From Cyanophora paradoxa CCMP329 (Eukaryota > Plantae > Glaucophyta), in assembly GCA_004431415.1 (NCBI GenBank), contig QPMI01000508.1:109429-173428 (forward strand): a stretch of 64,000 nt of DNA, given 5' to 3'. Positions 10,620 to 35,736 of this stretch are shown here, piece by piece. Below the pieces are notes generated by a model, which searched no databases, was not told where the DNA came from, and worked only from the letters and a program-made list of their open reading frames with translations. The first letter of the stretch is position 1; the number at the start of each line of letters is the position of its first letter. The position numbers and the translations under genes were made by a program.

Positions 10620-10738
10620 GGACCCCGCCCGCGCCGCGCCTCCGATCCTTCATCTCTGTCTCTTCCAAGAGAACACGCGTTATGTTACACTCCTCAGCTG
10701 CAGCTGCGCGCGGGTGGCGGCGGTCGCACACGCGCCGC

Positions 10739-11406: not shown

Positions 11407-11635
11407 GGCCTCCTTCTTCGCTGCTTCTTCGCGTCAAACTTGGTCGGGGCGGAGGATCCCTGGGCTGCGCGTACGCGGGCACTCGCTTCTTCGCAAAATG
11501 TCGGGGGGAGCAAACTGTGCGGGCGTACGCGAATCGCGAGTGCACGGGACCTCGTGGGCGTCCGAGCGCGCGCGCAGCGAGTGGAACCGAGAGTGAGCAT
11601 CCAGAAGGTGCCGCGCGCTGCGGCGGGGGGCCGCG

Positions 11636-13700: not shown

Positions 13701-14648
13701 CCCGTCGCTACAGACGCTGTGCTTCCATAGCTGTACATACGCAGTTCGATCGAATTCTGGTATTCGATTTCTACAGGCTCTTGGCCTTCTAAATGCGCAT
13801 GCCGCTCAACTACGCAGCTCCATGTATTATATTGTGGCACGCCGGATCTGTGATTCGGGACTCGATGATTAATCAGCGGCTCTTGGTCGATATATCAGCG
13901 GCTCCCGGGCGCCAGGCCGCCGCGCCGGATCTTTGATTGGGGACTCAATAATTAATCAGCGGCTCTTGATTAGCGGCAGCCAGGCCGCCGCGCCGGGCTG
14001 CAGCTACGTATACGCGTATACGGGACACCGGCCCGGCGGGCAGCGCGCGCTAGCGCTAGCGCTGGGTCACGGGGCTCGGCGGGCACGTCCGGCAGGCGTC
14101 TTCGTTGGCAGGTGCGCTTTTCATTCTGAATAACGTAAGCTCAGCACAGGCCGCCGGGCTACCGCGCTGCCGACGCCTGCCGTTCGGCGCGCCGCTGGCA
14201 ACGAAAATCAGCATGCGCAGTACCCCGCGCCGGCCCTGGCCACGGAGCCGCTCGAGCTCGGCCCGCAGCGAGATTGATATTCAGAGAGCGCTCCGGCGCC
14301 TGCACATCGCGCGCACTTCACGCAACGCGCGGAGCGCTGGCCGGCGCGGTCACCGACCGGACGTAGACGCCTAAGGCTCTCCCCGAGCTCGACCGGTCAG
14401 CCCGGCCGCGGCCACGGCGCGGCCCGCCGCGCGCGCCGTGATCATCAAATTCGCTCTCGCAGGGACCGTGTGAGCGCCTTGAGCGTGACCGCACCTGTAC
14501 GCGTACGGTACGCGGTCAACTGGTACGTATACCGGCCGCGCGCGGACCAGCAAAACCCGGCGCCGGCGCCGGGTTTTCTCCGCCCGACTTTCTCCACTGA
14601 CTCTCCAGAAGTCGCGGCCGGCACAGATATAAATCTATACGGGTCGAA

Positions 14649-15518
14649 ATGGCTCGGGTTCTCATCGGCCGACTTGTGTCAACTGTGTTCGGCGGCTCGG
14701 CAGCTCATGATCAGCGCATCGAAGTCGCTCGAGCTCAGACGTCGACGTCGACGTCGACGCATGTGCAGTCGATGTCATTTCACCGCGAAACAGATTCAGC
14801 GGCGACGCCGTCCCCTTTCGACACGCTCCCCGATCACATCCTTTGCCGGATATTCGAGGGCCTCGATCTAAGGGCCGCAGCCCTCGCGCGCCGGGTCTGC
14901 CGCCGCTGGTGTGAAGCGGTCGAGACGAACAACGTACTCTGGCGCCAACTGCGCGTGCAGCTGGGCGAGCCTGCTCTACATCTCGTCCGCCGGCTCGTCA
15001 CCGACGTGCTTCGCCTCGCGGCGCAGCGCGGCATTCTCGTCGGATCGCTGTCCGAATCCGACATCAATTGTGCACGTGGTGTCTTCGAACGCAGCGTCGA
15101 GCTCTGCCGTCCATTCCTCGCAGAATCCGCAGCTGCAGCCCATGACGTGTCCGGCCTTTCTCCGGGGGTCGCGGCCGCCTTCCAAATTCTACGGCTTCAG
15201 CCCCGCGTCCGTCAAGAGACACAGAAGCTCAGGCAGAAGGCTGTGCAGTTGTTGAAGCGACCGTGGAATGAATTGCTGAACGTGTATTGCGATTCCAAGT
15301 GCAAGGCTCATTTGAATGTCAATCTTGATCAGCCGTTCTTCTCCCTCTTCCAGCTGATCGAGCTCGTGGATTTCGCGGACGCCTTCGACGCCGTCATCTC
15401 GGGCATCCTGGCCCCCGCGGCCGACGCGGGCGTGGACCCCCGCCTCAAGGATGCCGCCTTCGCCGCCGTCGCCGCCAGGTGCGGGCGTAGAAATCGTACA
15501 TGTATTAATTTAATTTAA
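14649..15518 (+). CDS. F-box domain protein (first exon(s); downstream exons degenerate, possibly a pseudogene)
   Basis: PFDTLPDHILCRIFEGLDLRAAALARRVCRRW F-box motif; C-terminal half is paralogous to ORF 30742..31326. Confidence 0.65.
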   Translation: MARVLIGRLVSTVFGGSAAHDQRIEVARAQTSTSTSTHVQSMSFHRETDSAATPSPFDTLPDHILCRIFEGLDLRAAALARRVCRRWCEAVETNNVLWRQLRVQLGEPALHLVRRLVTDVLRLAAQRGILVGSLSESDINCARGVFERSVELCRPFLAESAAAAHDVSGLSPGVAAAFQILRLQPRVRQETQKLRQKAVQLLKRPWNELLNVYCDSKCKAHLNVNLDQPFFSLFQLIELVDFADAFDAVISGILAPAADAGVDPRLKDAAFAAVAARCGRRNRTCINLI

Positions 15519-18038
15519 TTTATACTTATATGTTAGTTTACTATTGCCCTTGAAATCCACTAAGGTATTGATAAATGTTCGTATCCTGCAGCTGATACCG
15601 ATATCGACGTCGACTGAGATTTTGCTTTCCTTCGCAGGATGAGGCAGCTCCTGGTTTGCGTCAAGGTCTACAACAAAGTGTTGGTTCGTGTGCTCTTCGA
15701 ATTCGAAATTGATATCAAAAGCTCGAGGCACATGCACATACACGCACGTATACGCGTGTATTCGCATTGTATTGCTCACATCTGCACAGTCAGATGTGAA
15801 TACGTATACGCGCCTGCGCGCCGTGTGTGACGCGCATATGGCGGATCGTCTTCTCTGCGTGCGTGCACTGCCAATTTCCAATGCGTCGTGTACGTGTTCA
15901 CAGCGCAAGCACTCTCAGGAAGATCAGGTCTCTCCTCCCAAGTTCTTTCACCTGTCCGCGGCTGTTTGGGGAATTCGAGGCTCGAGCTCACAATCGCACA
16001 CCGGTACCAAAACAGTTCTGGACGGCCATGAAAAGCGGTGTGTGTGAATACATATTTAATTTCCGGATGCGGATACATGTGCATGCACATTGATCAGACG
16101 GTTTCTAATATTATTAATACTAATACTGTGCATACGCGGATACTAATACTGCGACGGTTTCCAGATCTCGAAATGACGGCATCATATCCTTCATTATTAA
16201 GTGCATGAGAGCTCGAGCTCCAGCTGATCCGAATCCACGTCAAAGGCGGCTTATGTCCCGGTATTTCATTTGCTAAGCTGCAATATACATTAATTTCATC
16301 TATAATTTATCATAATTACAACTTAACATGCCCTTCATTTGCATGTCCTCATATTCAATGCAGACGCACGCGCACATTTGCAAGTTGTTCCTTGGTTACT
16401 TTGTTTATGCTGTGTGCTGGAGCGAAGGGGCTCTCCATTGCATCCGACTGGAGGAGCAAGTCCGTGCCCAACTTCGGCCGCTCAGACTTCGCTTTCGTGA
16501 CGTGGATGCTACATGCATATGCGGAGGTGCGGCGATATTGTTACGGCAGGGGTGATTCCCTAGCCAAATCCGGCGCCGAGCTAGTCTGAGACGTTCCGGC
16601 TACGTAGCCTATTGGATAGGATGCTCGCCTTTCGTGACAATATCGACCCCAGCTGAATTCCTTCGAATTCCTATATCCGTCCGCGTCATAAAGTTGTTCG
16701 CCGCAGGTCCGGGGTCTGCCGGCGCCCTTGGATTCGGAGCGGCGGTGGGCGGCGGCCCTTCTGATCGCTTCAATGGACGTGGCCGATGGGCGCGTCGTTG
16801 GAGCTCTCCTGCAGCTGAGGCTTTGAGTTCGAAAAGGAAAATTCTAGATCAAATATATATATATCAACTAACTATAGCCGGCGAACTCGGAGCGGCGGTG
16901 GGCGGCGGCCCTCCTCATCGCTGCGATGGACGTCGACGAGGGGCGCCTCGTCGGAGCCCTCCTGAGGCTCTGAATTCGATACGGAAAAGTCGCCATGAAC
17001 TTATCTCAACTGCGCGCTAGCTGGTTTCTCAACTGTTTTTGGCAAGTTCATGGCCTACCTACAGCTAGACGGCCGCGGTGTACTCCTCTCGCATATCGTT
17101 CACACTTGCAGCAACTTTTGATACAGGAAATATGAATTCTAGATCTGCGAATGCGTGTAAAATTGTACATACATATCATAGTATACCCCTCGCTCGTGCG
17201 TATCGATATCTGTTAGACGCTTTTACCAGTTGGAGGTGCAGCGACTGGCCGGTACGGAATAAGGCAAATCGCGTACCTCCGCTCGCGATCGTCGCCTTCG
17301 TGCCCCCGGCCCCTAGCCTAGTAGCTCACGTACGCCTGCGCTAGCGCTCCGCGCCCGCGCGTCTATTAATATTTGCATGGCGCCGGCCAGGCCTAGCAGA
17401 CGATACTGTTCCTTTAATTTCTTCTTTTGCCGACTTGCCCTTCAGCTTCTGGAAAGAGTGCTTGGAGAGAATTCGAAGTCGAGCCTTCGATTCTTCGATT
17501 CCGCTCCGCGATATTCCTGCGCACGTGTGGCCTAGTGTCGAGGGCTGTCCCTGGAGACGTCTCCAGGCGACGGATCTCCCTCCCGCTGAAAAAATTCGTA
17601 AGCATCTGGGAATCCCACTCGAGCCCGATCTGACTCGATTCTGGCGAACGAACAATGCTGCTCTAGATCTTGATGAACAATGCGGAAGAATAAAGCGCAT
17701 GCTGCTCCGAGGCTCTAGATCTCGTCCTTATCTCGCTCCGTCTAGATCTCCCACTTGACGGACTTGGTTCGCCTCCTATTTGGATCCGGGAGCAAGCTTT
17801 AAATTTCTCGGAGTGTTCTCAGCGCCACGGCGTGTGTACATATGCATGTCATCCTCGGAGACTTCGGGGGTACGGAAAATTTGCGGTAGCGCGACGATTA
17901 CGGCAGCGCGGCGGGCCAGGCTTCCCACCCGTGGGTGCCTGATAACGCTGCGTGTCAAGCTGCTCGGAAAGTCGCGCGCCGAGCCCACCCGACCCCGGTA
18001 GTCCGAAAGCGCTAGATAGGCCAGCTCGGAGTCGACGG

Positions 18039-21000
18039 ATGGCCGAAAACAGCGCACCACCCTCCAGTAAGGCCGCTGAGACGAGCGGCCCGCCCCCGGA
18101 TCGCCCGGGAGCGCCCCCGACCATCACGGTCGCGTTTTTGAATGTCGAGAGCCTGACCGGCGTCCCTCGCCGCGTCTGGCTCACCAGATGGCTTAAAAAG
18201 AGGCATATAGACGTTCTAGGCCTCGTGGACCACCGCCTCAACCCTAAAGAGATCGCCGCCTTCGCACGCCGCATAGGCCCGCACTGGTCCGCTCACATCC
18301 CCCCGGCAGCTAACCCGCGGCCGGACACATGGAGCAGAGGCACAGGCTTCATCGTGCGCAATCAGATCCTTGGCCTCCCCGGTGCTCAAGCCACGCTCGT
18401 CCCCCTTGCGCCCCGCGCGGGCGTGCCTGCGCACGATGTTACTGTCCTTCGCCTCAGCAGCGATGCACATACGTACTTCATCACGTGCGTGTATGCCGCC
18501 AACGACGCCGGGGCGCAGCGCCGCCTCGCCGCAGGTCTCCAGGCCTCGCTCGTGGAGCCCACGATCCCGCAAGGCGCATCGCTGATCCTCGGCGGCGACT
18601 TCAATGCCTACGCTCAGCCGCTCCTCGAGAGCCGCCGCCGCGCCGCCGGAGCGCCACCCCCGCCTTTCGCTCACTGGGCAGAGATGCTCGCAGACCTCGG
18701 CCTGCAAGATGAACACCGCCGCCGCCGCCCAGACGAACGCATCTATACACGCTGGCACAACAAGACAGGCCGCTCGAGCACCAACGCCGCCCGCCTCGAC
18801 CATGTCTTCCTCTCGGCTGACCTCTGCGCCGCGACAGAGAAAGTGGGAGTCCTCCGCACCGCCGGCCCCGCACCGAGGCCCGACCACGACGCCGTCTACA
18901 CGCGCCTCTTCACGGGAGCCAGACCCGTGACCAAATCATCCCGCTTCCGCCTGCAAGACCGCGTCCTCGCTCGCCCGGATTTCGACAAGCGCGTCCGCGC
19001 GCTCATCGCTGACTCAATCGCGACGCAGCCCCCGAAACGGACACACGAGTGGCAACGCTGGCTCGACAAGCTCATCACCGATATCCGGTCCATCGCCCAC
19101 TCCCTCCGCCCGCGCGTTAACTCGGAACTCCGGGAGGCGCGCGAAGCCGTCGCAGACATGTGGGCGGGCGCCGAGCAGGCGCTGCAGGAGGCCGGCCGCG
19201 ACACCGAGGCCGAGGACGGCGCAGTCCCCTCGAGGAGGCCAAGCTCGACGCGGCCGAGGCCGCTTTTCACTCCCGTAAGAATCTAGAGCGCGCGCTCTCC
19301 GGAGCAGTCACTATCCCCCCCGACCTCGCCCGCCACATGCGCTACGCCGGCGCTGACCACGAGATGCGCTCGATGCAGCCGTACCCCCCGGCGCCAGGAG
19401 CCCCGCCCGCCTCCGATCACGCGACGATGACGGCGTTCGTCAAGGCGTACTACACCGAGCTCCTCACCGCCCAGCGCCCCCTGCCCCCGACCTCCCCCCC
19501 CCCCCCCCCATACCCCCGACCCGCCGCCGCACCAGTACCCCCCCCCACCGTCCCCGGACGCGGCGAAGCCCGCCCGTCCTCTCCACCTCCCCCGGGGCCA
19601 GTGCAGAAACGTGCACGCTCGGATCCCTCCCGTCCGCTGCCCGAGCCAGACGAGGCTCGCCCGGACCCGGCCCCCGAGCCGAACCCCGACCCCGATCCCG
19701 GTGCCCCGGCGCCCGATGCCACCCCAGAGGCTGAAGCGGCGTACCCAGCTGTCGTTAGACGGCTGCGGGAAGCTGCGCTCCTTACCCCCCTCGATCCGCT
19801 GTCTCATGAAGAAGCCGCCCTGCTCGCCCCCTGTCTCGACACGGCGCCTGCCCCCCTCTGCGCCCCAACTCAGGGCGAATACACTGCTAAGGAAGTCGGG
19901 GAGAGCCTCCAGGAAATGAATAAGTCCACCGCACCGGGCGAGGACGGCATGACCGTCCGGTTCTACCTGAAGTTCTGGGACGTCATCGGCCCCATCATAG
20001 CAGAAAGCTATAACTGCGCGCGCGCGCTCGAGCTCGGCACGCTCTCAGAACGCCAGCGCATGGGACTCATCCAGCTGCTCTATAAAAAGGGTGACCGCGA
20101 CCGGATCCAGAACTGGCGCCCCATCACGCTACTGCAAATTGATCGCCGCCTCTACGGGGCGGTCTTGGCGAAGCGGATCGCCCCCGCGTGCCAGCACACG
20201 ATCAGCTCGGTCCAAACGGGCTTTATGCCCGATCGAAACGGCGCGGATAACGTATGGCAGATGCAATCCGTCATCCGCTACGCCGCCCGCGAGCTCGAGG
20301 GCAAACAGATCGTCGTCCTGAACACGGACTTTGAGATCGAAAGCGTACGACCGCGTCGAGCACATCTACGCGCTACGCGTTCTCGCGATTCAAGGCTTCC
20401 CCGCGGAATTCCTCCAGGACGTTCGCGCTGCGATCAAAGGCGCGCGATCAAAAGTGATATCGATGCTCAACGGCGTCGTCGACCCCGATCCCATCAAAAT
20501 CACGCGGAGCGCGATGCAGGGCGACCCGTTCGCGTGCATGTTCTTCAACACGCAGCAAGAGCCGACGACGCGCGCGATACTAGCAGACCCCGAGATAACC
20601 GGCGTACCAGCGCCCGGGAATCCCGGGGTCGAATCCAAACTGAACCAATACGCCGACGACGCGGCGCACACGATCCTGATCGACCCGCAGTCGCCGGCTT
20701 CTCCGCCTTGGCCGATCCTGCCGAGGCACTTCCGTACTGGTTTGCCGGGGTCAGGCTCAGTGAAGCACAACGGCTCGTGCCTCAGCCTCAGCAAAACGGA
20801 AGGTATGCTCGCTGGCGCCGCCGCGATCCGCCCGCCGCAGACGCTGCCAGCCTGGGCAGCACAGATCCCGATCCGCTGGGTCTCGCAGACAACGACGCTC
20901 GGAATCCCGCTCGGCTCGACAGGCGACTTTGACCCGACCGAGTTCTGGCTCGGCAAGGGCGAGAGCATGCGCAAGGCGCGCACGCAATGGAACCTCCGAG

Positions 21001-23063
21001 GCATGCGCGCGCACCAGCGAGCGTACGTAGCCACCGCGATCCTCGCGTCCAAGCTAATGTACGCGGCCTCATTCCTCCCGTGCCCTCCGGATCCGGCAGC
21101 GCTCGACGCCCTCAAGCACGAGTACTGGTGCGCGATCTGGCCCCGGGCCCCCGAGGCGCCAGCTACGAAACGAGCCCCGAGAGGCAGGATCAGCCGCGCA
21201 ATGGCAGCGCGCCCACCCGCCCATGGCGGCCTCGGGGCCATCGATATCGACCTCGAATCCCGCCTCCTCGCGCAGGCCGGCACGTACGTTAAGGCGCTCT
21301 GCGACCCGACGTTCGCAGTCTGGAAGCTGTTCGCGGCCGACGACATCGGCACGCTCTTCTCGCGCGCCCGGAGCTCCGTCGCCCGCTCCCTTGGCATCGC
21401 CGCCCTTGGTGCACAACTCCCGCTAGCCCGCCAACCTGCGCTCCTCCCCTGCCAAGGCCCGCTCGCCCCGGCCGCACGCATCCTAGGCCTCCTCCGCCCG
21501 CGCGCGGCCGCGACGCAGCCAGCCAGCTGCCCCGCCGTCCGATCGCTCGAGTCGCTCCCGCTCACGCGTGAACGCTTCAGGGCAGAGCCCCTTTGGTTCA
21601 ACCCGGTGCTCTCCCCGACCGGCCCGCTCTGGGGCACCACGGCCGCCGACCGCACGCTCGCCGCCGGCTCCGCTACGTCACCAAAAATTACCCAAGCCGG
21701 CCAGGTCCTCACTGTACCCCCCCCGGGCCTGTCCCCCGCCGTCCGCCGACGGCTCCAAGTGATCCGAACGCAGCTTTCGATGCAAGTCTCCGCCCTCGGT
21801 CTCGCCCCCCTGTACCGCGGCCCCGCGGCGGTCCGCTCCGGCCCTGGCGGCGACCCCCGCGTCCTCGACCCCCCGATCACGGCGGGCCACAGCCCCCGCC
21901 GCCCCGGCCCGACCGCGGTCATCCTGGCGCTCCCCGGCCCCCCGCCCACCGGCTGCCACGTCGGCGCCCTCCCGGACGGCACGCTAGCCGAGCCGCCGTC
22001 ACCCTCGCAACCCCTCCCTGCCGCCCCCGCCTCACTCCCACGGGCACACGTCATCCTCGTACCCCCCGGCTCAGCTAAACAGAAGCAGCGCTGGCCCGCG
22101 GGCCGCCCAGTCCTCGCCGGACGCCTCGACGCCACGCCCTGGGTCCACACGGGCCTTCTCTTCGCCTCCCCTAAGGGCCGCCGCCCCTGGCTCGAGTACC
22201 GCATCTCCACGGGCTACCGCGCGCTCCTCGCCCTTCCCCCCACCCCCGACCCGGGCCCCCTCGCCCGCTTTGGAGACCCGCCCCCACGATGCGCATGGCA
22301 GACAGTGTGGAAACACGGCTGCCGCCATGCCAGCCTCACGGCTTGGAACCGCGAAGTGTGGCTGTGGGCTACGCACGCATGCCTGCCGACAGGCCAGTTC
22401 CTCCACCGCATAGGAGCCCGCCCCAGCCCCTTCTGCGAAGTCTGCGAGTGTATTGACATCCCGGAGGACACGTCGGATCACGCAATATACTACTGCGCGC
22501 CCGCCCGGGCCGCCTGGGGCGAGCTGCTCGAGCGCTGGAACGCCCACTTCCGCGCCGCCGTCCCCCTTAGTTGCGCGCACGCTATTACTGGCTTCTACGC
22601 AGTGCCCGACAACCTCCGCCGATCCCAGGGTCGCCGCACCCCACGCCCCCCACAGGCCCTGCTCCCGGCCCTCGCCGGCCTCATGATCAGCGCGGCGTGG
22701 CGAGTCCACCAAGCCACGCCCGAAGAGCGAGAGCAGGCGGGCAAACCCCATGCCCAGCTCATCTGGGAGGCGTTCGCCCGTGACGTCTGGGCCCGGGCCC
22801 TCGTCGCCATCACCAAGGCGGAGTACGTCGCCCGTGGCCTGTCCCCCGCCGACGCCCAGCCCGCCCTCGACCCCAGCGCCATCACCTGGGCCTGGGAGCC
22901 CGACGACGACCCCCCGGCCCCCCCGAGCCCCATGGACCCGCTCATCTGGACAGCCGCCGGCTTCGTTGCTACACTCGAGCGAACAGAAACCGAGACCGTC
23001 CCCTCCCGCGGCCCCCTCCTCGAGCCGCCGCCCGACTTCGACTCCCCCGACGTCCCGTGGTGA
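18039..23063 (+). CDS. LINE ORF2: AP endonuclease, reverse transcriptase, zf-RVT-like Cys/His domain (frameshifts at about 19228 and 20333)
   Basis: APE motifs FLNVESL, GGDFN, RLDHVF, PDHDAV. RT motifs APGEDG, NWRPITLL, DFE(K)AYDRV, QGDP, QYADD. C-terminal CEVC...EDTSDHAIYYC. Confidence 0.9.
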
Positions 23064-23076
23064 CCGCCCGGCCGGC

Positions 23077-23971
23077 CTACAGCCACGGCACCCGCAGGCC
23101 CGCCGGCAGCGGGGCGGAGACCACCTCCAGGCGATCCCCCGCCTGCGAGAGAAGTGAGCAAGCTAGCGCCAACCGGCCCCCGCGGCCCCTCCGCACCATA
23201 AAATCCATGGCCTCGTCGATGCTGTTGAACCTCCGGTAGTCACCCCCGCCCACCCCGGGCACCCTCCATATCTGGGCCTGCGCCTTCGGCAGCTCCGGAT
23301 GGTTGCGGGAGTTCCTGCAGCCCCACCGCCACATTGGTAAACAAGCACGCCGCGACGCAATCCCCCTGCACCACGCCCAGAGGCGCTGCGCACCAGACAG
23401 GATAAATCCCCGGCCGCCGCCCCTTGCGCACGGCAATGAAGCCCAGCGTACCCTTCGCCGATACCTGCTTGCAGCCTGCGTAGGGCACATGCACGGGGTA
23501 GCCGCCCAGCCGCCCGTCCGCGTACAGCGCCACCGCCTCCCGCAGCCCGGTCAACGTCTCAATCCACGCCGGCAACGTGCCCATCGGGCTCAAGGCCGAC
23601 GCCGCAGGCGCAACAGCAGTCTCCGCCGCCAAGGCGACGGGCGCCCCAACCGCACCGGCGGGCGCCCCGAGGGCGCTCGCTAAGATAGCGACGGCAACAG
23701 GGTCCGCCTCGTGCTCGCCCGACTCGGTCCCGCCGACGGCGCCGGCTGGCGACACGAGATCGGGCACATCGTCCAGACGCTTCGCCGCAGGCTCATCCCC
23801 AGACGCCTCCTCCGACTCCCGAGCCCGCTTCTCGCCAACCGCGACGCGCGTAGCGTCGACCGCCGCCTCCGCCTTCCGTTCCTCGCCTTCCACGGCCATC
23901 CCTCCCAGTACCCCCTCCACAATCATATCACCCTTACGCCCCCCAAGGGGCTTAGGGGACATAGGGGGCAT
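23077..23971 (-). CDS. Antisense spliced gene with RNase H1 N-terminal hybrid-binding (Cauli_VI/viroplasmin-like) domain; start uncertain
   Basis: Removing GT-AG introns 23315-23393 and 23143-23196 gives GFIAVRKGRRPGIYPVW-NSRNHPELPKAQAQIWRVPGVGGGDYRRFNSIDEAMDFM, matching the FYAV..GR.PGIY..W.....QV.G..G..YK.F....EA..F pattern. Confidence 0.65.
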
Positions 23972-25790
23972 ATGCCCCCTTGTTGCGAACTAGCCCCGAA
24001 CCGTACCCCGGATCAAAAAACCAGGCCGTATCTCCCGCAGGCCCCCCTAGGGGCCTATCTCCCCTCAGTCACATAACCGACACTCCCGCCACCACCCCGT
24101 ACGCGCCCGTCATGATCCTCCCGACTGCCATCACCGGCTACTTCTCGGGCGCCCAGCCCAGCGGCGACGGCGCCAGCTCCTCGTCCGCACCCGCTAAGCC
24201 GGCTCCGCCCGCGCCCGCGTCGTCGCCTCGCACCAAGCGAGGCCGCCCCTCTGCTGCGGTACGTCCCACGCGTACGCATACGCCTGCGACCCCTAGTCCC
24301 TGCCGATCCCCTGATCGCCGCACAGGCGAAGCAAGCCAAGGAGAGTCTCCTTATCTCTCGCTGTACTCTGCGCTCCCGGCAGCCTGGCAGCCTGCCAGCA
24401 GGTCCTCAAGGCCCCTGCCCCGCCGCCTCTGCATCTCTAGATCTGGCGGTCTAGATCTGGACCGGACGCCTCGGTTGCTCTCCGATCCTCAGGGGCCCCG
24501 GGCCCCGGGCCCGAGCGGTACGTATTCTTTTTTGGCCTTAAGCTTCCCCGTTCACGATACTATAGCTATGATAACCAGATAAGATGAGGCCCGTATGGCT
24601 TAGCGGTTGAAATCACGGATCGGAAGTGCGAGGCCAGGGATCGAATCTCCTCAGAGGGATTTCGAAGTCCATTCACTGGCTCGTCGGGCAGCACCCTAAG
24701 CCCCCGATAAGACCGTCGACGGTCGACCCCGCTAAAGTGGCAACGTGGCCGCCTGCACTGCGATGGCGCAGCGTGAGGGTCGTGGGGCAGTACTTCGGTA
24801 CACGCCCAAGTCTACAGCCATTCCCCGGTCGCTTAGATAGGGGAGGGCAGACTGTACACATGACGGCGATGCCGTCCCCCTCCGAAAAAACCAGATAATT
24901 CCGCGGGTGCACGTGCTGGATTACGTGCCGCGCATTCCATGCCGCCCTGCGGCTTCCCACCCTGTGGGCCTGTCATCCAATTCGTATTATAGTTTATTCT
25001 GTCGTTTGCTGCGGCATGCATGCTTGCTTCAGCGCTGTCTTTCTCTCTCTACGTATACGTCGCGGGATCTTTGATTCGCGATCGGGACTCGATGATTAAT
25101 TATACTATGATATTATGACACTATCGATATCTTGATCATGATAATATATAAATGTGATACCATTCTGATAATGCGCGTGACGAGGCCTCCCCCCCCCCCC
25201 CCCCCCCCCCTGCCCCCTCCTGGCCCCCTTGAGGCCAGCTGGGCCCCCTCTGCACCGGTACCCGCCTCGGCCTTATAATTTCTCTCCGAGCACGAGTCGT
25301 CGGCCTCCCTTCGGATCCCCTTTCGAATTCCCCATCCCATCCTCCGGATCCCTTTGGAATTCGAATACTTATATATATATATATTAGGCCTGTTCGCCGC
25401 GCGCATACCCCTAGGCCTGCTTCGCCGCGGCGGCCGCGGGGCGAATTCTCCGCGACGCAACAACACATCATATATATCAGCAGATGCGCATACGGCGCTC
25501 CGAGGCTCGGCACGCATTAATATTGTCGCACGCTCTCGACCGGTCAGCTCCAGTTCAGCACCGGCGCGCGGCAGCGCGGCGAAAATCTTGGTCGACGTGA
25601 GGCCTCTCGCAGGTTGCGGTTGCGCGCCTCGAATTCGCGGAGCCGACCCGTTGACGTCGTTGACGTCGCGATCGACCGTAAAGTTTAAGCTTGACCGGTC
25701 AGCTCCGATCTGCGCCCGCGCGCGCGCGCGCGAATTCGAAGCCGGCTGGATTTCGAGCACATTCTAACGCTGCGCATGCGTTCAGATTAC

Positions 25791-25998
25791 TTAACTCACT
25801 CGGCTTATTTCTCGCGCGGGTAAGACTCTGAGATCTAGATCAGGATCGTATGCTGGAGATATCTGATTTGAATATACTGCCGGCCGTACACTCTAGGTGA
25901 CTACAATTGGATGCCTGTAAACGATCAGGGGGCTGCACACGAGGCTAAGGTCTGTGACTAGACCGACAGCTACGAGGGTGCTGGCCTCTGGGCGCCTC
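25791..25998 (-). repeat. Ngaro repeat B2 (208 bp)
   Basis: Matches 26186-26393. Confidence 0.95.
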
Positions 25999-26018
25999 AA
26001 GGGACGGTGTGGGCGGGA

Positions 26019-26185
26019 AACGCGAAATTGAGGCGGCTCGGGCGCCGCGCTTGCGTGCGAAAACGCGTATGGGTACGCTAGTACAAGTTGACTACCTGAA
26101 TCAAATTCGGAACTTGAAGTTTAGACTGCGAAACGGGGCTCGAACAGCCGGCTCGCTAACCTCAGTAAATCTACTTTACTACCCA
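26019..26185 (-). repeat. Ngaro repeat A2 (167 bp)
   Basis: Matches 30534-30700. Confidence 0.95.
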
Positions 26186-26393
26186 TTAACTCACTCGGCT
26201 TATTTCTCGCGCGGGTAAGACTCTGAGATCTAGATCAGGATCGTATGCTGGAGATATCTGATTTGAATATACTGCCGGCCGTACACTCTAGGTGACTACA
26301 ATTGGATGCCTGTAAACGATCAGGGGGCTGCACACGAGGCTAAGGTCTGTGACTAGACCGACAGCTACGAGGGTGCTGGCCTCTGGGCGCCTC
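26186..26393 (-). repeat. Ngaro repeat B1 (208 bp)
   Basis: Matches 25791-25998. Confidence 0.95.
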
Positions 26394-26531
26394 CGATGCG
26401 AACGAAATATAATGAAGAGAAGCGGCATCCAATAAATGATATAAAATATGTTTGGTGTGAAGCAGCGAGGAAAGAGAAGAAAGACGATATCGATAAATCT
26501 AGAAGAGCGGGCTCGAGACTGGCCGGCGCCC

Positions 26532-28189
26532 TCACGGGGCCTGTGGCTGGCCTGATTGAGGAGCGGAGGCGGCAGACGGTGAGGGAGCTCGAGGAGGAGA
26601 AGGCGGCGGTGGCAGCGAGCCCTGGGTCTCGGGCCACTGAGGGGGAGTCGGCGAGGAATCCGCTGATGGGAGCCGCTCCTTGAAAACGCTGATCTGTAGG
26701 CGAGAGAGCGGGTCGGCGAGCGTGTTCTCGAGGCCCGGGACGTGTACAGCGCGAAACTCGAAATGGTGGAGGGCGGAAAGGCGGTAGAGGGAGCGGAGGA
26801 GGGGAGCGAGGGCCGGCTGCGAAATGCGGCCGCCGGAAAGGGCATGGAAGACAGGTTTACAGTCGGTTTCAAAAATAATTCGCTGCTGCTGCCAGCTGGG
26901 GCCCAGGTCGCCGCTGCGATGACGAGGGCCATCAGCTCGCGCCAGGGCATGCTGCGAGTCGTGCCCTCTGGCCAAGATCCGAAGGTCCACGAGCTGCCGA
27001 AAACTGCGCCGAAGCCGAGATTGCTGGCGTCGGTCTGGATTCGCAGCACCTTGGCCGACTGCCAGTCAGACGTAGGGATGAGCCGGACTCCGTGCAGCCG
27101 CTGGAGGAGGTCGCGCCACCATGTGAGATCCGCATGAAAGCCGGCATGAAGCCGGGCGCGATGGTGATTGGCCCGTAGAGTGGCGAGCTGCGCCACGACC
27201 CGCCGAAGGAAAAAGCGCCCCGCGGGGACGACGGGCACGGCCGAGACGAGGGAGCCGGCGAGGGAGCGGAGCTGGCCGGCTGAGGCATGGCTGCGAGTGG
27301 CCCACTCCGCGAGCTTCGCCTCGAGGTCGGCGAGCCGCTCTGGGGACAGGCGGGCCACCATCGCGAGGCTGTCAAGCTCGATGCCGAGGAAGGTGAGGCG
27401 GGTGCCGGGTCCTTCTAGCTTATGCGGGGCCAGAGGAATACCAAGGTCCGCGCAGACCTCGAGCAGCACGTCGATGTACCGCCGGCACTCGCCGGTGCCG
27501 GCCTGCCCGATGAGGAAAATGTCGTCGACATATCGGGTGGGATCGAGCCCACGACGGCGGAGGGCAAAATCGAGGGCCTGGCCGAGGTCCTCGAAAATGC
27601 GGGGGGAGGAGCGGGCACCGAAGGGGAGGCAGAGGTCGATGAAAAATTCGAGGATGGTGGGATTGGAGCGGGAGGGGAGGGCGAAGCCGAGGAGCCACCA
27701 GTCCTTCCGCCGTACCGCCAGCAGGCGAAAAGCAGACTCGATATCCGCCTTAGCCATCTCGGCGCCGCGGCCGAGCTGAATCAGAAGCTCAATCGCTCTG
27801 CTGACCTTCGTATTCTGGTAGTGTAGCTCGTCAGGGTCGATGCCGCTGTTGACTGACGGGCCGCGGTGCTTGGGGTACGAAAGGTTGTGAATTCGGCGCC
27901 ATTTGGTCGAACGCTTCTTCGGAATGGCGCCGACTGGGGAGGCAACGAAGGGGGCGAGGGGAGGAGACGGGAACGGGCCGGCGACCCGTCCCATGGCGAT
28001 CTCCTTCTCGACGTCCTGTCGCACCACGTCGATGTGCTCAAGGGCAGAGGGCTCGGGGCGGGAAATTGCAGAGAAGGAAGGGCCGCGGTACTGCAGCGGG
28101 AAGCCGTGGGCGAACCCGTGTGCGAGGCGGGCGGCAAGGGAGGGATCGGGGTGGCCCTCCAGGGCTGCGGCGATGCGATCGGGCCGCAC
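26532..28189 (-). CDS. DIRS/Ngaro reverse transcriptase-RNase H (frameshift at about 26900; N-terminus probably extends upstream)
   Basis: SPVGAIPKK...WRRIHNLS, KADIESAFR, LPFGARSSP, YVDD, FLGIELDS; RNase H TDAS, ELMA, TDC, HVPGLENTLADPLSR. Confidence 0.9.
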
Positions 28190-28349
28190 GGGCGTGGGGG
28201 CGAGGCGGGGCGGGACGCCTGGGAGGAGCTCGTCGACATCAAAGTCAGGGACCTCAATGGAGAAAGGCGGCGGCGGCGGCGGCGCCCTGCCCCCGGCGAG
28301 GAGGCGCGGCCCGGCGTCCGGAAGGCCCGAGCCTTGAGCACCAGCGGCG

Positions 28350-29050
28350 CTCGCCGCGGGGCCTGGAGGGCCGGCCGGGCGAGGGCACGGGGAGGCGGCA
28401 GCGGCGCCTCCGGAGGGGCGGGGTAGACCCGCGAGCTCAGCGCGAGAGACAGCGCCGGCGGCGCCCGCCGCGGGGCCCGGGGGCCGGCGGGGCGAGGGCG
28501 CGGGGAGGCGGGAGCGGCGCCTCCGGAGGGGCGGGGTAGACCCGCGAGCTCAGCGCGAGAGACGGCGCTGGCGGCGCCCGCCGCGGGGCCCGGGGGCCGG
28601 CGGGGCGAGGGCGCGGGAGGCGGGAGCGGCGCCTCCGGAGGGGCGGGGTAGACCCGCGAGCTCAGCGCGAGAGACGGCGCTGGCGGCGCCCGCCGCGAGG
28701 CCCAGAGGGCCGGCGGGGCGAGGACGCGGGGAGGCGGCAGCGGCGCCTCCGGAGGGGCGGGGTAGACCCACGAGCTCGGCGCGAGAGACAGCGCCCGCGG
28801 CCGCAGCGCCGCCGTGGGGCCCGGGGGCCAGTGGGGCGAGGGCGCGGGGAGGCGGCAGCGGCGCCTCCGGAGGGGCGGGGTAGACCCGCGGACGCAGCGC
28901 GAGAGACGGCGCCCGCAGCGCCCGCCGTGGGGCCCGGGGGCCGGCGGGGCGAGGGCGCGGGGAGGCGGCAGCGGCGCCTCCGGAGGGGCGGGGTAGACCC
29001 GCGAACTCAGCGCGAGGGACGGCGCCTGCCGCGGGGCCCGGAGGGCCGGC
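28350..29050 (-). repeat. Six tandem GC-rich repeats of about 115 bp between gag and RT
   Basis: Core gcggcgcctccggaggggcggggtagaccc recurs at about 28401, 28514, 28626, 28740, 28857 and 28971. Confidence 0.9.
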
Positions 29051-29186
29051 GGGGCGGGCTGCAGGGAAGGAGTTCTTGGCAGGGAGATGGGAGGGGAGAG
29101 GGGCTGAGAAGGCGCGCAGCCTGCGGGGCGGGCGCCGGGAGTGGCCGCTGGGGGGAGGCGGCGGCCGCGCCTGAGCGCGAGGGGGC

Positions 29187-30431
29187 TCAGAGGGGGCCGC
29201 GCGAGCGGCCTCCGTCCCGCGAACGGCTGGTCGCGGCCCGGCACGCGTGCTCCTCGCCGTCGCGGCAGCCTGCTTGCCCGCACGCGACGCAGACGTGGCG
29301 GCGGCGGCAGCCTTCGCAGCGCCGCCCGTTGTTGTAGAGCCAGCAGACGTCCTCCCCCGGCTGGCCGGCGCCGTAGCGGGGGTCCTGGCGAACTGCGGCG
29401 CCCGCCGAGGGCCGCGGGGCCTCGTGGCGGGACGCGCTCGGGCGCCCAAGCGGGAGGGCCGCGGCGTGCGCTGAGGGCCGAAAGAAATCGGCGGAGAGGG
29501 GGCCGGGCTCATCGGAAGGCGGGGCGCTGTTGGTGACGGTCGTATTCAGAATCATTGAGTCTCCGTCGCCAAGATCGTGCGCTCGGGAGCGGTCAGCGCG
29601 CTCGGCGATCTGGCGCCGCATCCGGACCGAGTACTCGTAGGCTGATGCCCACGGGGCCCGGCGGGCGAGCGAGTAGATCTCCCACATGTGCAGGAAGATC
29701 TCGATCAGCCGGCGGTGCGACTCCTCGAAGTCCGGCTTGCCGGAGGGCAGGACCGGCATGTTCTCGCGCCGGCCCGCCGCCACCCCGAGGGCGGCAAAGC
29801 AGGCTCCGAAGTCGACGGCGTTGAGGTTGCGGGAGGAGGAGGGGGATCCGGAGGCGGAGCGCAGGCCGGCCGCGGAAAGGAGAGCGGAGATGGTGGGGTC
29901 GACGGAGGCGGGCTTATCGATCGGGTGGGAGGAGAAAGCGGGGCGGAAAACGTGGGGAAGGAGGTCAATGTACTCGCCGCTCAGGAGACGAGCGGAGAGC
30001 TCCGTGCCCGGGGCGCCGAGGGATCTGGGGAAGGTGGAGCCGCGCTCGCGATCAATTTTTGCGGCGGGTGTGCTATCGGTCGCGGGGGCCGCGGGCGAAG
30101 CGCTGAGGCGGGCTTCCAGGTGTGCAATTGCACGAGTGAGCTGATCCAAGCGCTGGGACGTCTCCGAATCGGCCGGGGCTGGCCGCCGCCGCTGGCGCGA
30201 AATTTTTGAATTTGCGGCGCCGGCTGCCTGGGACGGGCTCTCGATGCCTGCGAAGCGGACGCGTGCTGAATGCGGACGCTCGCCGAGCTCGGAGGCGCTG
30301 GTTTCTGCTCCGGAGACTGCCGAAGGTGCTGCGGCTGACTCTGAGTCGCTGGCGACCGGAGCGCGCGAGCCCCGCCTTGCCTGCGCGAAAGTTGCCGAGG
30401 AAGTGGTTTTACGGCTGCTGCTGGCCGTCAT
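29187..30431 (-). CDS. Ngaro ORF1 gag-like protein
   Basis: Position after repeat A1; coiled coil; C-terminal Cys/His knuckle CWLYNNGRRCEGCRRRHVCVACG...EEHAC. Confidence 0.7.
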   Translation of the reverse strand: MTASSSRKTTSSATFAQARRGSRAPVASDSESAAAPSAVSGAETSASELGERPHSARVRFAGIESPSQAAGAANSKISRQRRRPAPADSETSQRLDQLTRAIAHLEARLSASPAAPATDSTPAAKIDRERGSTFPRSLGAPGTELSARLLSGEYIDLLPHVFRPAFSSHPIDKPASVDPTISALLSAAGLRSASGSPSSSRNLNAVDFGACFAALGVAAGRRENMPVLPSGKPDFEESHRRLIEIFLHMWEIYSLARRAPWASAYEYSVRMRRQIAERADRSRAHDLGDGDSMILNTTVTNSAPPSDEPGPLSADFFRPSAHAAALPLGRPSASRHEAPRPSAGAAVRQDPRYGAGQPGEDVCWLYNNGRRCEGCRRRHVCVACGQAGCRDGEEHACRAATSRSRDGGRSRGPL

Positions 30432-30533
30432 GGTAGCGCTAGCTGAAGCGCGAGTTGTGCGGCGAGGTGCCGGAGCGGGACCGGCGGGACGCTCGCGCCT
30501 GACATGCTGTGCGTGTCCCTGTGCATGGGGCTG

Positions 30534-30700
30534 AACGCGAAATTGAGGCGGCTCGGGCGCCGCGCTTGCGTGCGAAAACGCGTATGGGTACGCTAGTACA
30601 AGTTGACTACCTGAATCAAATTCGGAACTTGAAGTTTAGACTGCGAAACGGGGCTCGAACAGCCGGCTCGCTAACCTCAGTAAATCTACTTTACTACCCA
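30534..30700 (-). repeat. Ngaro repeat A1 (167 bp)
   Basis: Matches 26019-26185. Confidence 0.95.
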
Positions 30701-30741
30701 CGGATTTTTCGATATCTGGACCGGAGATCTATATTCATTAG

Positions 30742-31326
30742 ATGCTTGTCGCCGCGCATTTGCATGCTGGGGAAGATGTCGATGCCGACGGCGAGGAGAT
30801 AGAAGCCAGCGCCAGCGCCGCCGCTGCTATGGCCATCGATATCGTTGCCCGTCTGGTCACGGGCGTGCTCGCGCTGGCGGAGGGGCCCGCGGCCGCGGAT
30901 GGCCATGGCCGCTTTGACCGCAGCATCGAGCTCTGCCGCCCCTTCTTCGACGGCCGCGCCGGCCGCTGCTGGCCGTGGCGGCGCGCGCATACCGCAGCTG
31001 CGCATACGGACCTCATCGCGCTCCAGGGGCGCATGCACGAGGGGGCGCGCCTGCTCGAGGAGGAGGCCGCGCGGTTCAGGCAGCTGACGAGCGCGCAAGA
31101 CGAGCTCCGCGCAGCGGGGCAGCAGCACGTCTTCTCCCTGTGGAGGGCGGAAGAGCTCGTGGACTTCGCGGACGCCTTCGAAGCCGTCGTCTCGGGCGTC
31201 CTGGCCCCCGAGGCCGCCGCCGGCGTCGACCCCCGCCTCAAGGACGCCGCCTTCGCCGCCGTCGCCGCCAGGTGCGCATATGCATGCGCGTGCGGGCGGA
31301 ATTTATCTACTCGCATATATAATTGA
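30742..31326 (+). pseudogene. Paralog fragment of the F-box gene at 14649 (F-box part absent)
   Basis: ELVDFADAFEAVVSGVLAPEAAAGVDPRLKDAAFAAVAARC is nearly identical to the end of ORF 14649..15518. Confidence 0.6.
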
Positions 31327-34110
31327 TATATACGTATATATACGCGTCCCCGTGCACGGGGCCAATATTAATATAGATCTAGACGTCTAGGCGTCTCTAG
31401 ACGGGGACGTCAAGAACAACTGCCAATTGATCATGACCATGCATATGATCCGAACCCAACGATTAAACTGCAACCGCCGCGGATCTGCAACTTGATCTAA
31501 TAATGAAAGATACCACCGCTTATAATTATATATAATGAAAGATATTTCGGTTTAACTCGAAATTTGCAAATTAAATATTGCGTGCGCAGGATGAAGCAGG
31601 TTCTCGTCTGTATAAGGGTCTACAAGGACGTGCTTGCTGCATACACGGCCGCTGGCAAACCGATATCGCTTGAAGATCGCATGGCGTCGTCTTCCTACGG
31701 GCTTCTCGAGTTTCTTTGCGTGCGACAGTTTTATTAAATTTGCAATATAATCTACATCTTAACAGCGTGAATTTCCTGGCTTATGATCAGTGATCATATG
31801 TGCATGATCATCGCAGAAGGATATTGTCACCCAGCCTACCCGCGATCGCGTTTTGGCGAAGGGGGCGCTGTGCGGGGCCGCGGCGCTGACCATGGCTTCT
31901 GCTCGGCGCTGCCGGAGCAGGTACCGGTCTAATCGCAAGGAGCGCATCGTATTGTAAGCCTTCTGTTTTTTTCGATGCTTCTGTGTAAATTCGATGCAGA
32001 TAATTTTGGGCGCAGGGCTCTTGCCGGGGCCGCGGCAGGGCTTGTCGTCGTCCACTGCCTGACGGACAAGCCCGTGCCCAACTTCGGCCGCTCGGACCTC
32101 GCTCTCGTGGCGACGATGCTACATGCGGAGGTACGTGCCGGTCCTAATCCAATATTGATTCTGCGAGTATATTTCTCCCCCATATTAATTCAGCTGCATC
32201 GCAGGTCCGGGGCCAGCCGGCGAACTCGGAGCGGCGGTGGGCGGCGGCCCTCCTCATCGCTGCGATGGACGTGGGCGAGGGGCGCCTCGTCGGAGCCCTC
32301 CTGAGGCTCTGAATTCGATGCGGAAAAGTCGCCATCAACTTATCTCAACTGCTAGCTGATTTTTCAACTGTTTTTGGCAAGTTCATGGCCTACCTATAGG
32401 TAGACGGCCGCGGTCTTCTCCTCTCTCATTTTCGCAGCTGTATAAAGCTATCTATCCTTCACATCCGATGATCTGCAGCAACGTTTGATACAGGAAATAT
32501 GAATTCTAGGTCTGCGAATGCGTGTAAAATTGTACATATATATATACCCCTCGCTCGTGCATATCGATATCTGTTAGACGCTTTTACCAGTTGGAGGTGC
32601 AGCGGCTGTGGCCGGTACGGAGTAGGGCTAATCGCGTACCTCCGCTCGTCGCCTTCGTGCCCCCCTAGCTCACGTGCGCTAGCGCTCCGCGCCAATTAAT
32701 GTTTGCATGGCGCCGGCCAGGCCTGGCAGAGATACTGTTCCTTTGATTTCTTCTTTTGCCGACTTGCATGCGCACTTCTGGGCAGAGGGCTTGGAGAGAA
32801 GACTGGCCTTGTTCCGCTCCGGGGTCCGCGATATTCCTGCGCACGTGCACGTGCACGTGTGGCCTAGTGTCGAGGGCTGTCCCTGGAGACGTCTCCAGGC
32901 GACGGATCTCTCTCCCGATGAGAAACTTCGTAAGCATCTGGGCTTCCCACTCGAGCCTGATCTGCAGCTGACTCGATTCTGGCGGACGAACTTCGGAAGA
33001 ATGCTGCTCTAGATCTTGATGAACAATGCGAAAGAATAAAGCGCATGCTGCTCCGAGGCTCAGCGGCTCTAGATCTCGCCCTTATCTCGCTCCGTCTAGA
33101 TCTCCCACTTGACGGACTTGATTTGCCTCCTATTTGGATCCGGGAGCAAGCTCTAAATTTCTCGGAGTGTTCTCAGCGCCACGGCGTGTGTACATATGCA
33201 TGTCATCCTCGTACCTCTCTCGAAGTGTCATCCCAAATGCAACAACTTTTCTTTAATCCTCAGTTCGATGCTCTGGAGTCGCTGCGGGTCTAGCTATAGA
33301 TCTGCGATCATCGGATATCTGGGATTGTGCCGCCGGGCTCCCGGGGGTTCCAGACTTTGGCGGTTGCCTTCTCCGCCCTCCACTCAATTTTTTCCTCGTC
33401 GGTGCTCCACGCTCCCGGCAGCCTGGCGCCAGTTCCTCGAGGCCCGTGACCCGCCGCCTCGAGCTCAGCATCTCTGGTGGTCTGGACCGGATGCCTCGAA
33501 TGCTCTCCTCCGGGATCCGGGGCCCGAGCGGCACTTTTGTCGCCTTCCCCGTGCGCGATAACCAGATAATTAAAATTCCGCGGGTGCTGGATTGCGTGCC
33601 GCGCATTCAAATTCCTTGCCGCCCTGCGGCTTCGAATTCCCACCCTGTGGGCTTGTCCTCCCATTCAATTTTAATTATGTACATGTCTCGTTTGCTCCCG
33701 CTGCATGCATGTATGCTTGCTTCATGATCAGCGCTGTCGATTTCGCGGGGACTCTGCCAGGTCTTTCTTTTCTTGCAATTGGTGCAGGCCCCTCTGCCTT
33801 TAAATTTGTTATTCTTGATAAACATGCGTTCACGTTTGCTCACATACTCCCTCTCCGCCTCTCATATGTACTTCGCTTCTACAGACGATGCCTGCCCCTC
33901 CCCCCCCCCCCACACCCCCCTCCCCCTTCCCCCCCCCCCCCCCCCACCCACCACCCACCCCCCACCCCCCGGCCCCCTGGAGGCCAGCTGGGCCCCCTCT
34001 GCACCGGTACCCGCCTCGGCCTTCTCTCTCCGAATCCGCGCACGAGTCTTCGGCCTCCCTCCGGATTTCCTTTCCCCATCCCATCCTCTGGATCCCTTTG
34101 AAATACCCTT
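30840..34110 (+). repeat. Copy 2 of the degenerate tandem segmental duplication
   Basis: Colinear similarity to 14980-17857 plus 24351-25360. Confidence 0.75.
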
Positions 34111-34398
34111 CCCTCACCCCCGCCCCGCACGTGAGAGCAGGCGAGAGTGAAATGAGTTATCGGGTGGCTGCATAGCTTCTGGTCCATCCTACGAGCTCGA
34201 GCCTGCTGGCTCGCTCAGCGTAGCCTCGCTAGCTATAGCGGCCCAGGGCTGCAGCGCCAGCGCGACGGGGCCGCCCGCCGCGTCCGCCCCGCCCTCGAGC
34301 TCTGCCTGCTCCGCCACACGGGCACCCTTCTGGAGGAGCAGCGCACGCAGCTCCGGCGCGCAGCGCGTGCGAGCGTCGATCTGATGCGGAGATCGAGA

Positions 34399-35736
34399 TC
34401 AGTGCTTAAGCTGAGCAGGAGCTGAAGAGGGGCGCACGGTGCAGAGGTCGAAGAGCTCGTGCTTGACCTCCGCGATGCGCCGCGCGGGGTAGAGGACCTG
34501 CGCCTGCCGTGAGGCCGAGGGCCGGTGGGCGCAGCAAAGCGGAGATCCAGATCTAGAGCGCACCGGCAGCGGCCCCACGGGGTTGCTGCGCATCGCGGCG
34601 ACCTCCACGTCCCACACCCAGATGAAGCCTTGACCCGCCGCTGCGGCGCGGATCCGATCCCCCTGCGCACGCCAATCAATCGCCGCACGTGCTCCGAGCG
34701 GCTGAGGGCGCGCGCGCGCCTCTGGAGCGAGGCGGGCGCATGCGAGCGCCGGGTAGCCGGAGGCGTGCGCGACGAGGAGCGCCCCCTCGCAGCCGTGGTC
34801 GACGTCCATGATGGACGCGCCCATCGCGGAGCCGTCGGCCCCGTCGCTCGAGAGGAGCGCGAAGCGGGGGCACTTCCGGCCGGCCTGACGCCGTTTCGGT
34901 TTGGAAAGCTACAGCTGAAAGGTTAGAGAACCTGCTCGAACCTCATCCAGAACCATGTCGACGCTGAACTCCTCAAAGCTACACTCGAGATGCTCGACCT
35001 CCTGCACTGGGCTCAAGGCCGTCGACGCACGGTAGACTGAAATTTGCTCTCGGAAGCCTTCGCCCAAGGTTACGCACAAGAAGCGCTCAAAGTCGCCGTT
35101 CTGCGGTGGGATAACGGTGAGCTGCGACAGCCGCAGTAATTCTATAAGTCGATTGATTGAGGCTGCCAACCTGCGCGCGGTATGCAGCAATCACTCGGTT
35201 GATGCCCTCGAGTACTGTTTCCGATGCCGCGCCTGCAGCTCTAGATCTCTCGTCTGAGATGAAAACCCGATACGTGCCAATCGAAGATTGCTGTGGGTCT
35301 TTCACATATAGTGCCATAACAGAATCGTCCTGCAGCAGGAATCAGACTCGCGCGATTGAAAGAGCAATAAGAGCACGCGGGTACCACGAACTCCGCTCGG
35401 TCGACCTCGGCCCCGGCTCTGCTCTTCCGGAAGTCCGCCAGGCGGATGCCGACTCGGAGATCCCACAGCTGCCACTCCCCCTTCATGCCGAGAACGGCGC
35501 GCTCCCCGTTCTGCGATGAGAGCACAGCGTCATGCCGCGCTCGCACTGCACGGAGTCTGGATGCGCACCGGGGAGATGCTGGCCCTGAGGCTCCCGATCG
35601 GAGCCGGCATCGAGATCTCAGCGCGCCACTCGGTCTTTGCCGAGTCGAAGTCGAGCATCTCGAGGGTTCGGCAACTGCGTTCCGGGCAAGCGCATCTCGC
35701 CAGGGCCCTCCGCCCCTGCGAAACCGCTTGCACGTG
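34399..35736 (-). pseudogene. Possible degenerate WD40-like host gene abutting or interrupted by the viral insertion
   Basis: Fragments GEWQLWDLRVG and GFIWVWDVEV in broken minus-strand frames; a reading frame runs up to the junction. Confidence 0.3.

Follow-up and report, generated by a model that had tools for sequence, protein, structure and literature searches.

The Locus and Its Surroundings

The window, by which we mean the entire 64,000-nt stretch of Cyanophora paradoxa DNA analyzed here, opens with GC-rich genes having short introns (positions 1-14000) and also contains a duplicated F-box-like region, a LINE, a retroelement whose direct repeats are split and, beyond it, a large viral element. 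The subject of this report is the LINE, together with the gene of opposite orientation at its 3' end (its "cargo"), the coordinates of which are collected in table 1. The genome of Cyanophora paradoxa is likely haploid, and long antisense ORFs are common in it, so that caution in their regard has been advised (PMC6704402). Its gene models were produced by Augustus, trained on RNA-seq (PMC6704402), and they must therefore be considered as predictions and not as proof of transcription.

Table 1. Coordinates of the LINE, its antisense cargo gene and the paralogous site within the window
Feature	Position	Strand	Remarks
Whole non-LTR element, LINE plus cargo	17858..24356	+	Flanks match the paralogous site to 17857 and again from 24357
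5' leader, 181 bases	17858..18038	+	No ATG
ORF2	18039..23063	+	AP endonuclease, RT with YADD at 20649, C-terminal zinc-binding region
Gap between convergent stops, 13 bases	23064..23076	.	No A tail, no tandem repeat
Cargo exon 3	23077..23142	-	Conserved C-terminal tail, end PAGLRVPWL
Cargo intron 2, 54 nt, predicted, in frame	23143..23196	-	GTGCG...CGCAG
Cargo exon 2	23197..23314	-	Second domain half, 8-11-residue insertion relative to RNase H1, YRRF motif
Cargo intron 1, 79 nt, predicted	23315..23393	-	GTGCG...CTGCAG, interrupts the Trp169 codon
Cargo exon 1	23394..23899	-	Low-complexity N-terminus, basic motif pair, family-specific stretch, domain half to Trp169
Region upstream of the cargo gene	23900..24356	.	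Likely cargo promoter and LINE 3' end
183 bases present only at the paralogous empty site	33212..33394	+	Missing from the filled site (flank alignment)

The limits of the element are revealed by alignment of its flanks with a paralogous site near 33211, where the match extends to 17857/33211 and resumes at 24357/33395. The left end, at 17858, is sharp; the right one can be placed only to within about 15 bases (about 24340-24357). The first-pass annotation of this DNA had described the paralogous site as an empty one that lacks the whole segment; the segment is indeed absent, but the site holds 183 extra bases and the right boundary, at 24357, is less precise than had been supposed. Neither a target-site duplication nor a poly(A) tail was seen at the ends of the element. 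Since these 183 bases of the paralogue are missing at the junction, neither feature can be called there, and one end of the element may have been lost.

There is no repeat pair at the ends of the element that could represent long terminal repeats; its termini read GAGAC... on the left and ...TTATCT on the right. Helitrons are distinguished by a Rep/helicase gene and by TC...CTRR ends, and such an identity was rejected for this segment, which encodes EN-RT and has the termini just given. A search for a ribozyme or other known RNA at the element's ends gave three Rfam matches, all far under the cut-off, and RNA folding gave z values of -1.9 for the leader and -2.6 for the region upstream of the cargo.

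ORF2 is interrupted by frame shifts near 19225 and 20335. In Pfam, Exo_endo_phos scores 24.8 bits (cut-off 24.5), RVT_1 scores 28.1 bits on a partial frame (cut-off 29.6) and zf-RVT gives a weak match (17.7 bits, cut-off 27.5); no RNase H domain was found by Pfam in either ORF2 or the cargo protein. The AP endonuclease is N-terminal to the reverse transcriptase, the arrangement of the APE-RT type of non-LTR elements, and the best PDB sequence matches of ORF2 are to human L1 ORF2p (E 4e-11, against 1.5e-9 for R2). From its motifs we take the frame to be Tx1-like. The ORF1 that precedes ORF2 in L1/Tx1 is lacking, and the likeness to L1/Tx1, which is judged by similarity ranks, is one of resemblance only.

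Other features of the window deserve a brief description. The F-box-like gene region is duplicated (14601-17857 and 30700-33211, 84-93% identical), with a different mobile element in or beside each copy, and many of the indels between these paralogous flanks are 6-nt palindromes. Palindromic hexamers occur at about 3-4 times the expected frequency in the nongenic repeats (186 against 62 in 14000-17857, 105 against 24 in 24351-25790 and 230 against 86 in 30701-35700); elsewhere the ratio is 1.0 in the host genes and in the cargo region, 1.4 in ORF2, where such insertions of 4-6 nt also occur, and 0.85 in the viral element. This excess possibly results from the marking of silenced repeats by the host. 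The minus-strand retroelement at 25791-30700 has split direct repeats of 208 and 167 nt (100% identical), an RT frame and a 113-nt tandem array, a layout found in elements of the Ngaro/DIRS type. The AT-rich, Polinton-like viral element (35737-64000) is bounded by perfect terminal inverted repeats of 1378 nt and encodes an A32 ATPase, a D5 primase-helicase, a patatin, a peptidase S74 and an SAM decarboxylase, with weak matches to an integrase and a polymerase B.

The Antisense Gene and Its Predicted Introns

The cargo gene converges upon ORF2, and the 13 bp originally reported between their stops were found as described: the TGA of ORF2 occupies 23061-23063 and the antisense TAG 23079-23077. 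The gene had been assigned the span 23077-24350, of which only 23077-23899 is coding and the remainder, 23900-24350, is upstream sequence. Further in-frame ATGs lie upstream of the start, at 23926, 23962 and 23971, and the upstream region also has a perfect 7-1-7 palindrome at 24338-24352. At 24112-24325, on the plus strand, there is a frame that diverges from the cargo gene. It includes a KRGRP motif and a stretch resembling an intron (donor GTACG, then CTGAT and CAG); it could be matched neither to a Pfam domain nor to a database entry, and it does not score as coding.

Removal of both introns yields, from the ATG at 23899, a protein of 229 amino acids that is identical to P0001, a Cyanophora paradoxa model in EukProt. 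The Pfam domain Cauli_VI (PF01693) scores 16 bits in the unspliced frame, with only profile positions 2-19 covered, and 27.6 bits, against a cut-off of 21, in the spliced protein, where positions 2-44 of 44 are covered. When 9,209 splice models were ranked with a profile from four distant relatives, the two-intron model was first with 128.3 bits, followed by a runner-up at 126.2, with intron 1 alone at 119.6 and the unspliced frame at 61.3 bits, in a comparison that is not wholly independent because the relatives are themselves predicted models. Intron 2 is also backed by the family alignment. The first-pass proposal that two introns join the halves of the domain must accordingly be modified: both introns read GTGCG...CAG and the spliced frame passes the Pfam cut-off, but it is intron 1 alone that does the joining, intron 2 being downstream. 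Their donors had rightly been called host-type, for in five host genes, crudely modeled, GTGCG is used at 16 of 50 donor sites, more often than any other sequence. A different donor for intron 1, suggested by a blind gene model, was rejected, as its use removes the conserved core of the domain. In the four sequencing runs that we refer to as RNA-type (the label is a guess) no contig bridges either cargo intron; these contigs leave 23173-23423 without cover and hence are silent on expression.

A Predicted Hybrid-Binding Domain without a Nuclease

The assignment of the product to the RNase H1 N-terminal domain family, first made from the sequence alone, withstood comparison with the PF01693 profile, and the PDB and fold matches identify the same domain. 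Cauli_VI is the only domain that Pfam detects in the 229-aa protein, in which no catalytic RNase H domain was found, and the only PDB sequence matches of the domain are the N-terminal domains of yeast and human RNase H1. In the predicted structure (mean pLDDT 51.8), residues 1-121 have no confident structure and parts of the domain reach a pLDDT of 74-81. All of the top five PDB fold matches are to the human RNase H1 hybrid-binding domain, with E values of 0.011-0.21 that lie above 0.001, and the viral fold matches are mostly transactivator/viroplasmin proteins.

The binding surface of human RNase H1 is made up of W43, K59 and K60, and the mutation W43A abolishes binding (PMC6846478). In the alignment these residues correspond to W169, R196 and R197 of the cargo protein; the Trp is invariant across the cargo family and the basic pair is partly varied in P0008. 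The equivalent of Tyr29 is Ile in both the window and the second copy described below, and with this substitution and the 8-11-residue insertion the binding of the domain may differ from that of RNase H1. The family has additions of its own, namely a conserved stretch before the domain (residues about 113-152, within exon 1), the insertion inside the domain and, at the C-terminus, the PAG..PW tail. Toward the N-terminus the family mostly retains two patches of basic residues that resemble a bipartite nuclear signal, and P0008 (g19981) has a weak ribbon-helix-helix match at residues 8-35 (14.4 bits, cut-off 26). The product of the cargo gene is likely to bind hybrid or duplex.

The likeness to the RNase H1 hybrid-binding domain (PF01693; PDB 3bsu, 1qhk) consists of a score above the Pfam cut-off, the Trp and basic pair, and the fold match. 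The cargo protein differs in having no catalytic domain, in its insertion, in its own N-terminal extension and tail and, in two copies, in the Ile at Tyr29.

Absence of ORF1 and Apparent Splicing of the Sense Strand

The leader that precedes ORF2 is without any ATG, and consequently this copy has no ORF1, as had been noted at first pass. The contig ends of a relative of the element provide a weak hint that the element begins naturally at 17858 and is genuinely devoid of ORF1: they fall at 17865-17884 in all four RNA-type runs, with adapter beyond the end in one of them. A sequence related to 17874-17980 of the leader, with four differences, is found in 4/4 RNA-type runs and then diverges; it perhaps represents another LINE subfamily or a short derivative.

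Eleven joints are listed in the RNA-type contigs. Six are plus-strand GT/GC..AG skips within ORF2 (at 20803-21773; 86, 77, 148, 69, 172 and 69 nt, the last one in two studies), four of which shift the frame; three others resemble the same junctions slightly misplaced, and two are not splice-like. One RNA-type contig is identical to the window on both sides of such a skip. From these skips it appears that the sense RNA of the LINE is spliced, and thereby disabled, by the host. It had been argued that the cargo introns survive retrotransposition simply by being antisense, an argument that these skips on the sense strand render incomplete: the RNA that is copied must escape splicing regardless, and whole copies can come only from such escapees.

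These observations have some bearing on the idea that the cargo protein replaces ORF1 as an RNA chaperone, or helps full-length RNA to evade the host's splicing of ORF2. There is no ORF1 in the leader, and with so many skips, most of them frame-shifting, unspliced RNA needs either protection or luck. We nevertheless regard such a role as quite improbable. Pfam recognizes Cauli_VI alone, the 121 residues before it give no sign of an ORF1-type module and, as the protein would come from another transcript, it would not assemble in cis on its own RNA.

The Cargo Family and Its Probable Linkage to the LINE

A search with the C-terminal part of ORF2 among 7,996 candidates of 502-1598 residues found four ORF2 models: g16045, which is that of the window, and g24611, g1025 and g17151, which are 91%, 87% and 60% identical to it. 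The cargo gene is represented by eight models, all from Cyanophora paradoxa (g16046, g24612, g17150, g19981, g18405, g8147, a second accession identical to g8147, and g22369). Word-based protein searches returned only the window's own cluster, and the distant members come from an HMMER search with seven matches, two of which, a two-domain RNase H (P0012) and a cohesin protein (P0013), were not retained in the family. Three of the four ORF2 models have a consecutively numbered cargo gene (g16045/g16046 in the window, and g24611/g24612 and g17151/g17150 on two other contigs), a proximity that is judged from the gene numbers. The second copy is 91.4% identical to the window in ORF2 and 90.8% in the cargo; the third is 60% identical in ORF2 and 44% in the cargo (51% in the domain part). 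The earlier contention that the gene travels with the element gains from these two further pairs and their matching divergence, but it must accommodate g1025, which has no cargo partner among the proteins found. Five of the eight cargo models likewise have no neighbor among the four ORF2 models of that size range. Unannotated genes, short ORF2 models or 5'-truncated copies could explain the missing partners.

The differences between the ORF2 of the window and that of g24611 fall at 36 of 219 variable sites and at 10 of 281 conserved sites (Fisher p 1e-6), a distribution that fits two separately active, transposing lineages and not passive duplication.

An alternative is that the gene comes from some other multicopy unit, either a host family or a DNA element, beside which the LINE inserts specifically, or that the pair was segmentally duplicated. 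Such a history would account for the cargo models without a known ORF2 neighbor and for the ORF2 model without a known cargo; the plus-strand frame with intron-like signals from 24112 and the lack of a marking tail at the right end are compatible with it, and a PF01693 gene is borne by a Pleurotus Helitron (PMC4289320). This alternative seems improbable to us, however, since the paralogous site lacks the LINE and the gene together, with no trace, to the left of 17858, of the other half of a target, and no tail separates ORF2 from the gene. Moreover, ORF2 and cargo have diverged in step from 91% to 60%, with the ORF2 changes under constraint, and 5'-truncated LINE copies would equally give cargo genes without long ORF2 models.

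The domain and the tail are retained in all eight cargo models, as for the most part are the basic motifs, while the N-terminus drifts. Identity in the domain part is 84-94% within subfamilies and 42-58% between them, and five of the five further family sequences scanned are above the Cauli_VI cut-off (22.9-30.4 bits). Were the gene an old captured fragment that hitchhikes without protein function, so that at most its antisense promoter matters, little contrast between its parts would be expected, and the contrast is in fact small when the window is compared with the second copy: 8 of 124 sites differ in the domain part and 13 of 105 in the N-terminus. But from one subfamily to another not only the domain but also the tail and the frame have been kept, and 7/7 distinct family sequences (6 scanned) either pass the Pfam cut-off or cluster with those that do, which makes a mere passenger very improbable indeed.

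The composition of the gene was compared with that of ORF2 at four-fold sites. The cargo has G 83, C 47, T 18 and A 3, and ORF2 has C 605, G 276, A 118 and T 84; the two differ strongly when each is read in its own sense (chi-square 68.4) and much less so when both are read on the LINE strand (8.0, p 0.046). A+T amounts to 14% at these sites in the cargo against 1-5% in five host genes, one of which also has G in excess of C, a fact that weakens the strand argument. Composition thus gives modest support to a long residence within the element in the antisense orientation.

No relative outside the species was confirmed among 112 and 588 pattern matches in metagenome scans or among 200 and 98 in viral scans, and none was found in phages; the Cauli_VI clusters of a protein atlas, at 0.83-0.84, are a lead only. 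Within the window tblastn detected no second cargo copy, and none of the 20 frames scanned in the neighboring viral element contains Cauli_VI, so that no donor is seen there. On all of this evidence, we consider with some confidence that the antisense gene is an old, element-borne accessory cargo of the LINE.

A Possible Function for the Cargo

The interpretation that we favor, on balance, is that the segment 17858-24356 is a single-ORF LINE with a long-standing, reversed, two-intron gene at its 3' end, encoding what is predicted to be a nuclear, noncutting shield that binds hybrids. In outline, the RNA of the LINE would read the cargo on the opposite strand, so that the introns are copied unspliced, and a promoter within 23900-24350 would drive a separate cargo mRNA that is spliced. 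The basic motif pair would bring the protein into the nucleus. There the nuclease-free domain, with counterparts of Trp43, Lys59 and Lys60 preserved, would occupy RNA:DNA hybrids in competition with RNase H1, and a shielded RNA:cDNA hybrid would permit completion of the 6.5-kb cDNA. As the element lacks both ORF1 and RNase H, its own RNA:cDNA would be the obvious hybrid for the protein to bind. Its action would be in trans, an arrangement that is advantageous where a family has few copies.

With the binding residues kept and the catalytic part absent, competition with host RNase H1 is the proposed function that fits best. That the cargo is a decoy which protects RNA:cDNA from this enzyme is still a tentative suggestion, with rather less than an even chance of being correct. 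Host RNase H can also help rather than hinder LINE insertion, and this would reverse the sign of the effect of a decoy.

The main rival to this mechanism gives the same cargo another task, in which it would attenuate the RNA silencing of the element as a binder of dsRNA or of a silencing factor, in the manner of caulimovirus P6/TAV. The genes converge 13 bp apart, and their transcripts are likely to overlap and could pair. The host has homologues of Dicer and Argonaute and four of RdRP (PMC3700990) and methylates its repeats (PMC12344493). Among the fold matches of the cargo are the viral transactivator/viroplasmin proteins, and TAV is a silencing suppressor that requires nuclear localization (PMC3509663). 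But the suppression by TAV is reportedly not mediated through the binding of long dsRNA (PMC3509663), TAV has only the small domain in common with the cargo, and the nearest solved relatives of the latter are RNase H1 domains. A silencing suppressor is in our opinion unlikely.

Relation to Known Systems and Significance

The Cyanophora element resembles the L1 group of non-LTR elements in that a single ORF encodes AP endonuclease, RT and, toward the C-terminus, a zinc-binding region; it differs in having no ORF1 and, at this copy, no visible poly(A) or target duplication, and in the predicted spliced gene of the opposite strand at its 3' end. Primate L1 has an antisense ORF0, but this is located in the 5' UTR and is without such a domain. 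A closer parallel in arrangement is offered by the LTR elements Grande (gene23), RIRE2 and Retand, in which an antisense gene downstream of pol has its own promoter and some of the products are nuclear (PMC7264820). These elements share with the Cyanophora LINE the position and orientation of the gene, but they are LTR hosts whose products have no clear database match (PMC7264820), whereas here the host is a LINE and the domain is a known nucleic-acid-binding one. The word "intron" is absent from the text of that review of antisense ORFs (PMC7264820). Algae do provide another LINE with a captured accessory gene and no poly(A) tail, SymbioLINE-Dnmt, but its cargo is an intronless methyltransferase ORF upstream of RT and it has target duplications (PMC5890265). 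The PF01693 domain itself is found on a mobile element as capE of the Pleurotus Helitron helpo1.3, a rolling-circle DNA transposon (PMC4289320), and in a reverse-transcribing virus as part of the much larger, multifunctional P6/TAV of the caulimoviruses (PMC3509663). No such case was found in a review dealing with the RNase H of mobile elements (PMC5603734). No LINE bearing a PF01693 gene that is both antisense and spliced was found in the literature searched; the element may be listed in Repbase reports, in subscription journals or in the supplements of the genome paper, which lie outside that literature.

The known additional functions of LINEs reside mostly in the sense-strand ORF1 and ORF2, and the antisense ORFs of LTR elements have products of unknown kind. 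An intron-bearing antisense gene with a biochemically known domain is different in that its role can be assayed. The full proposition is that an ORF1-less family of LINEs possesses an accessory gene of its own, separately transcribed and provided with introns, which has been preserved between subfamilies 40% apart and encodes a stand-alone hybrid-binding decoy of the RNase H1 type, an antagonist of host RNase H at target-primed reverse transcription; this is slightly more tentative still than the decoy itself. It has a bearing on two questions, whether LINE insertion is favored or impeded by host RNase H and what limits full-length copying. The arrangement also shows how retrotransposition can disperse a spliced gene without loss of its introns. 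If the proposition is true, a hybrid-binding decoy encoded by the element would mark the RNA:DNA hybrid as a point of conflict between element and host.
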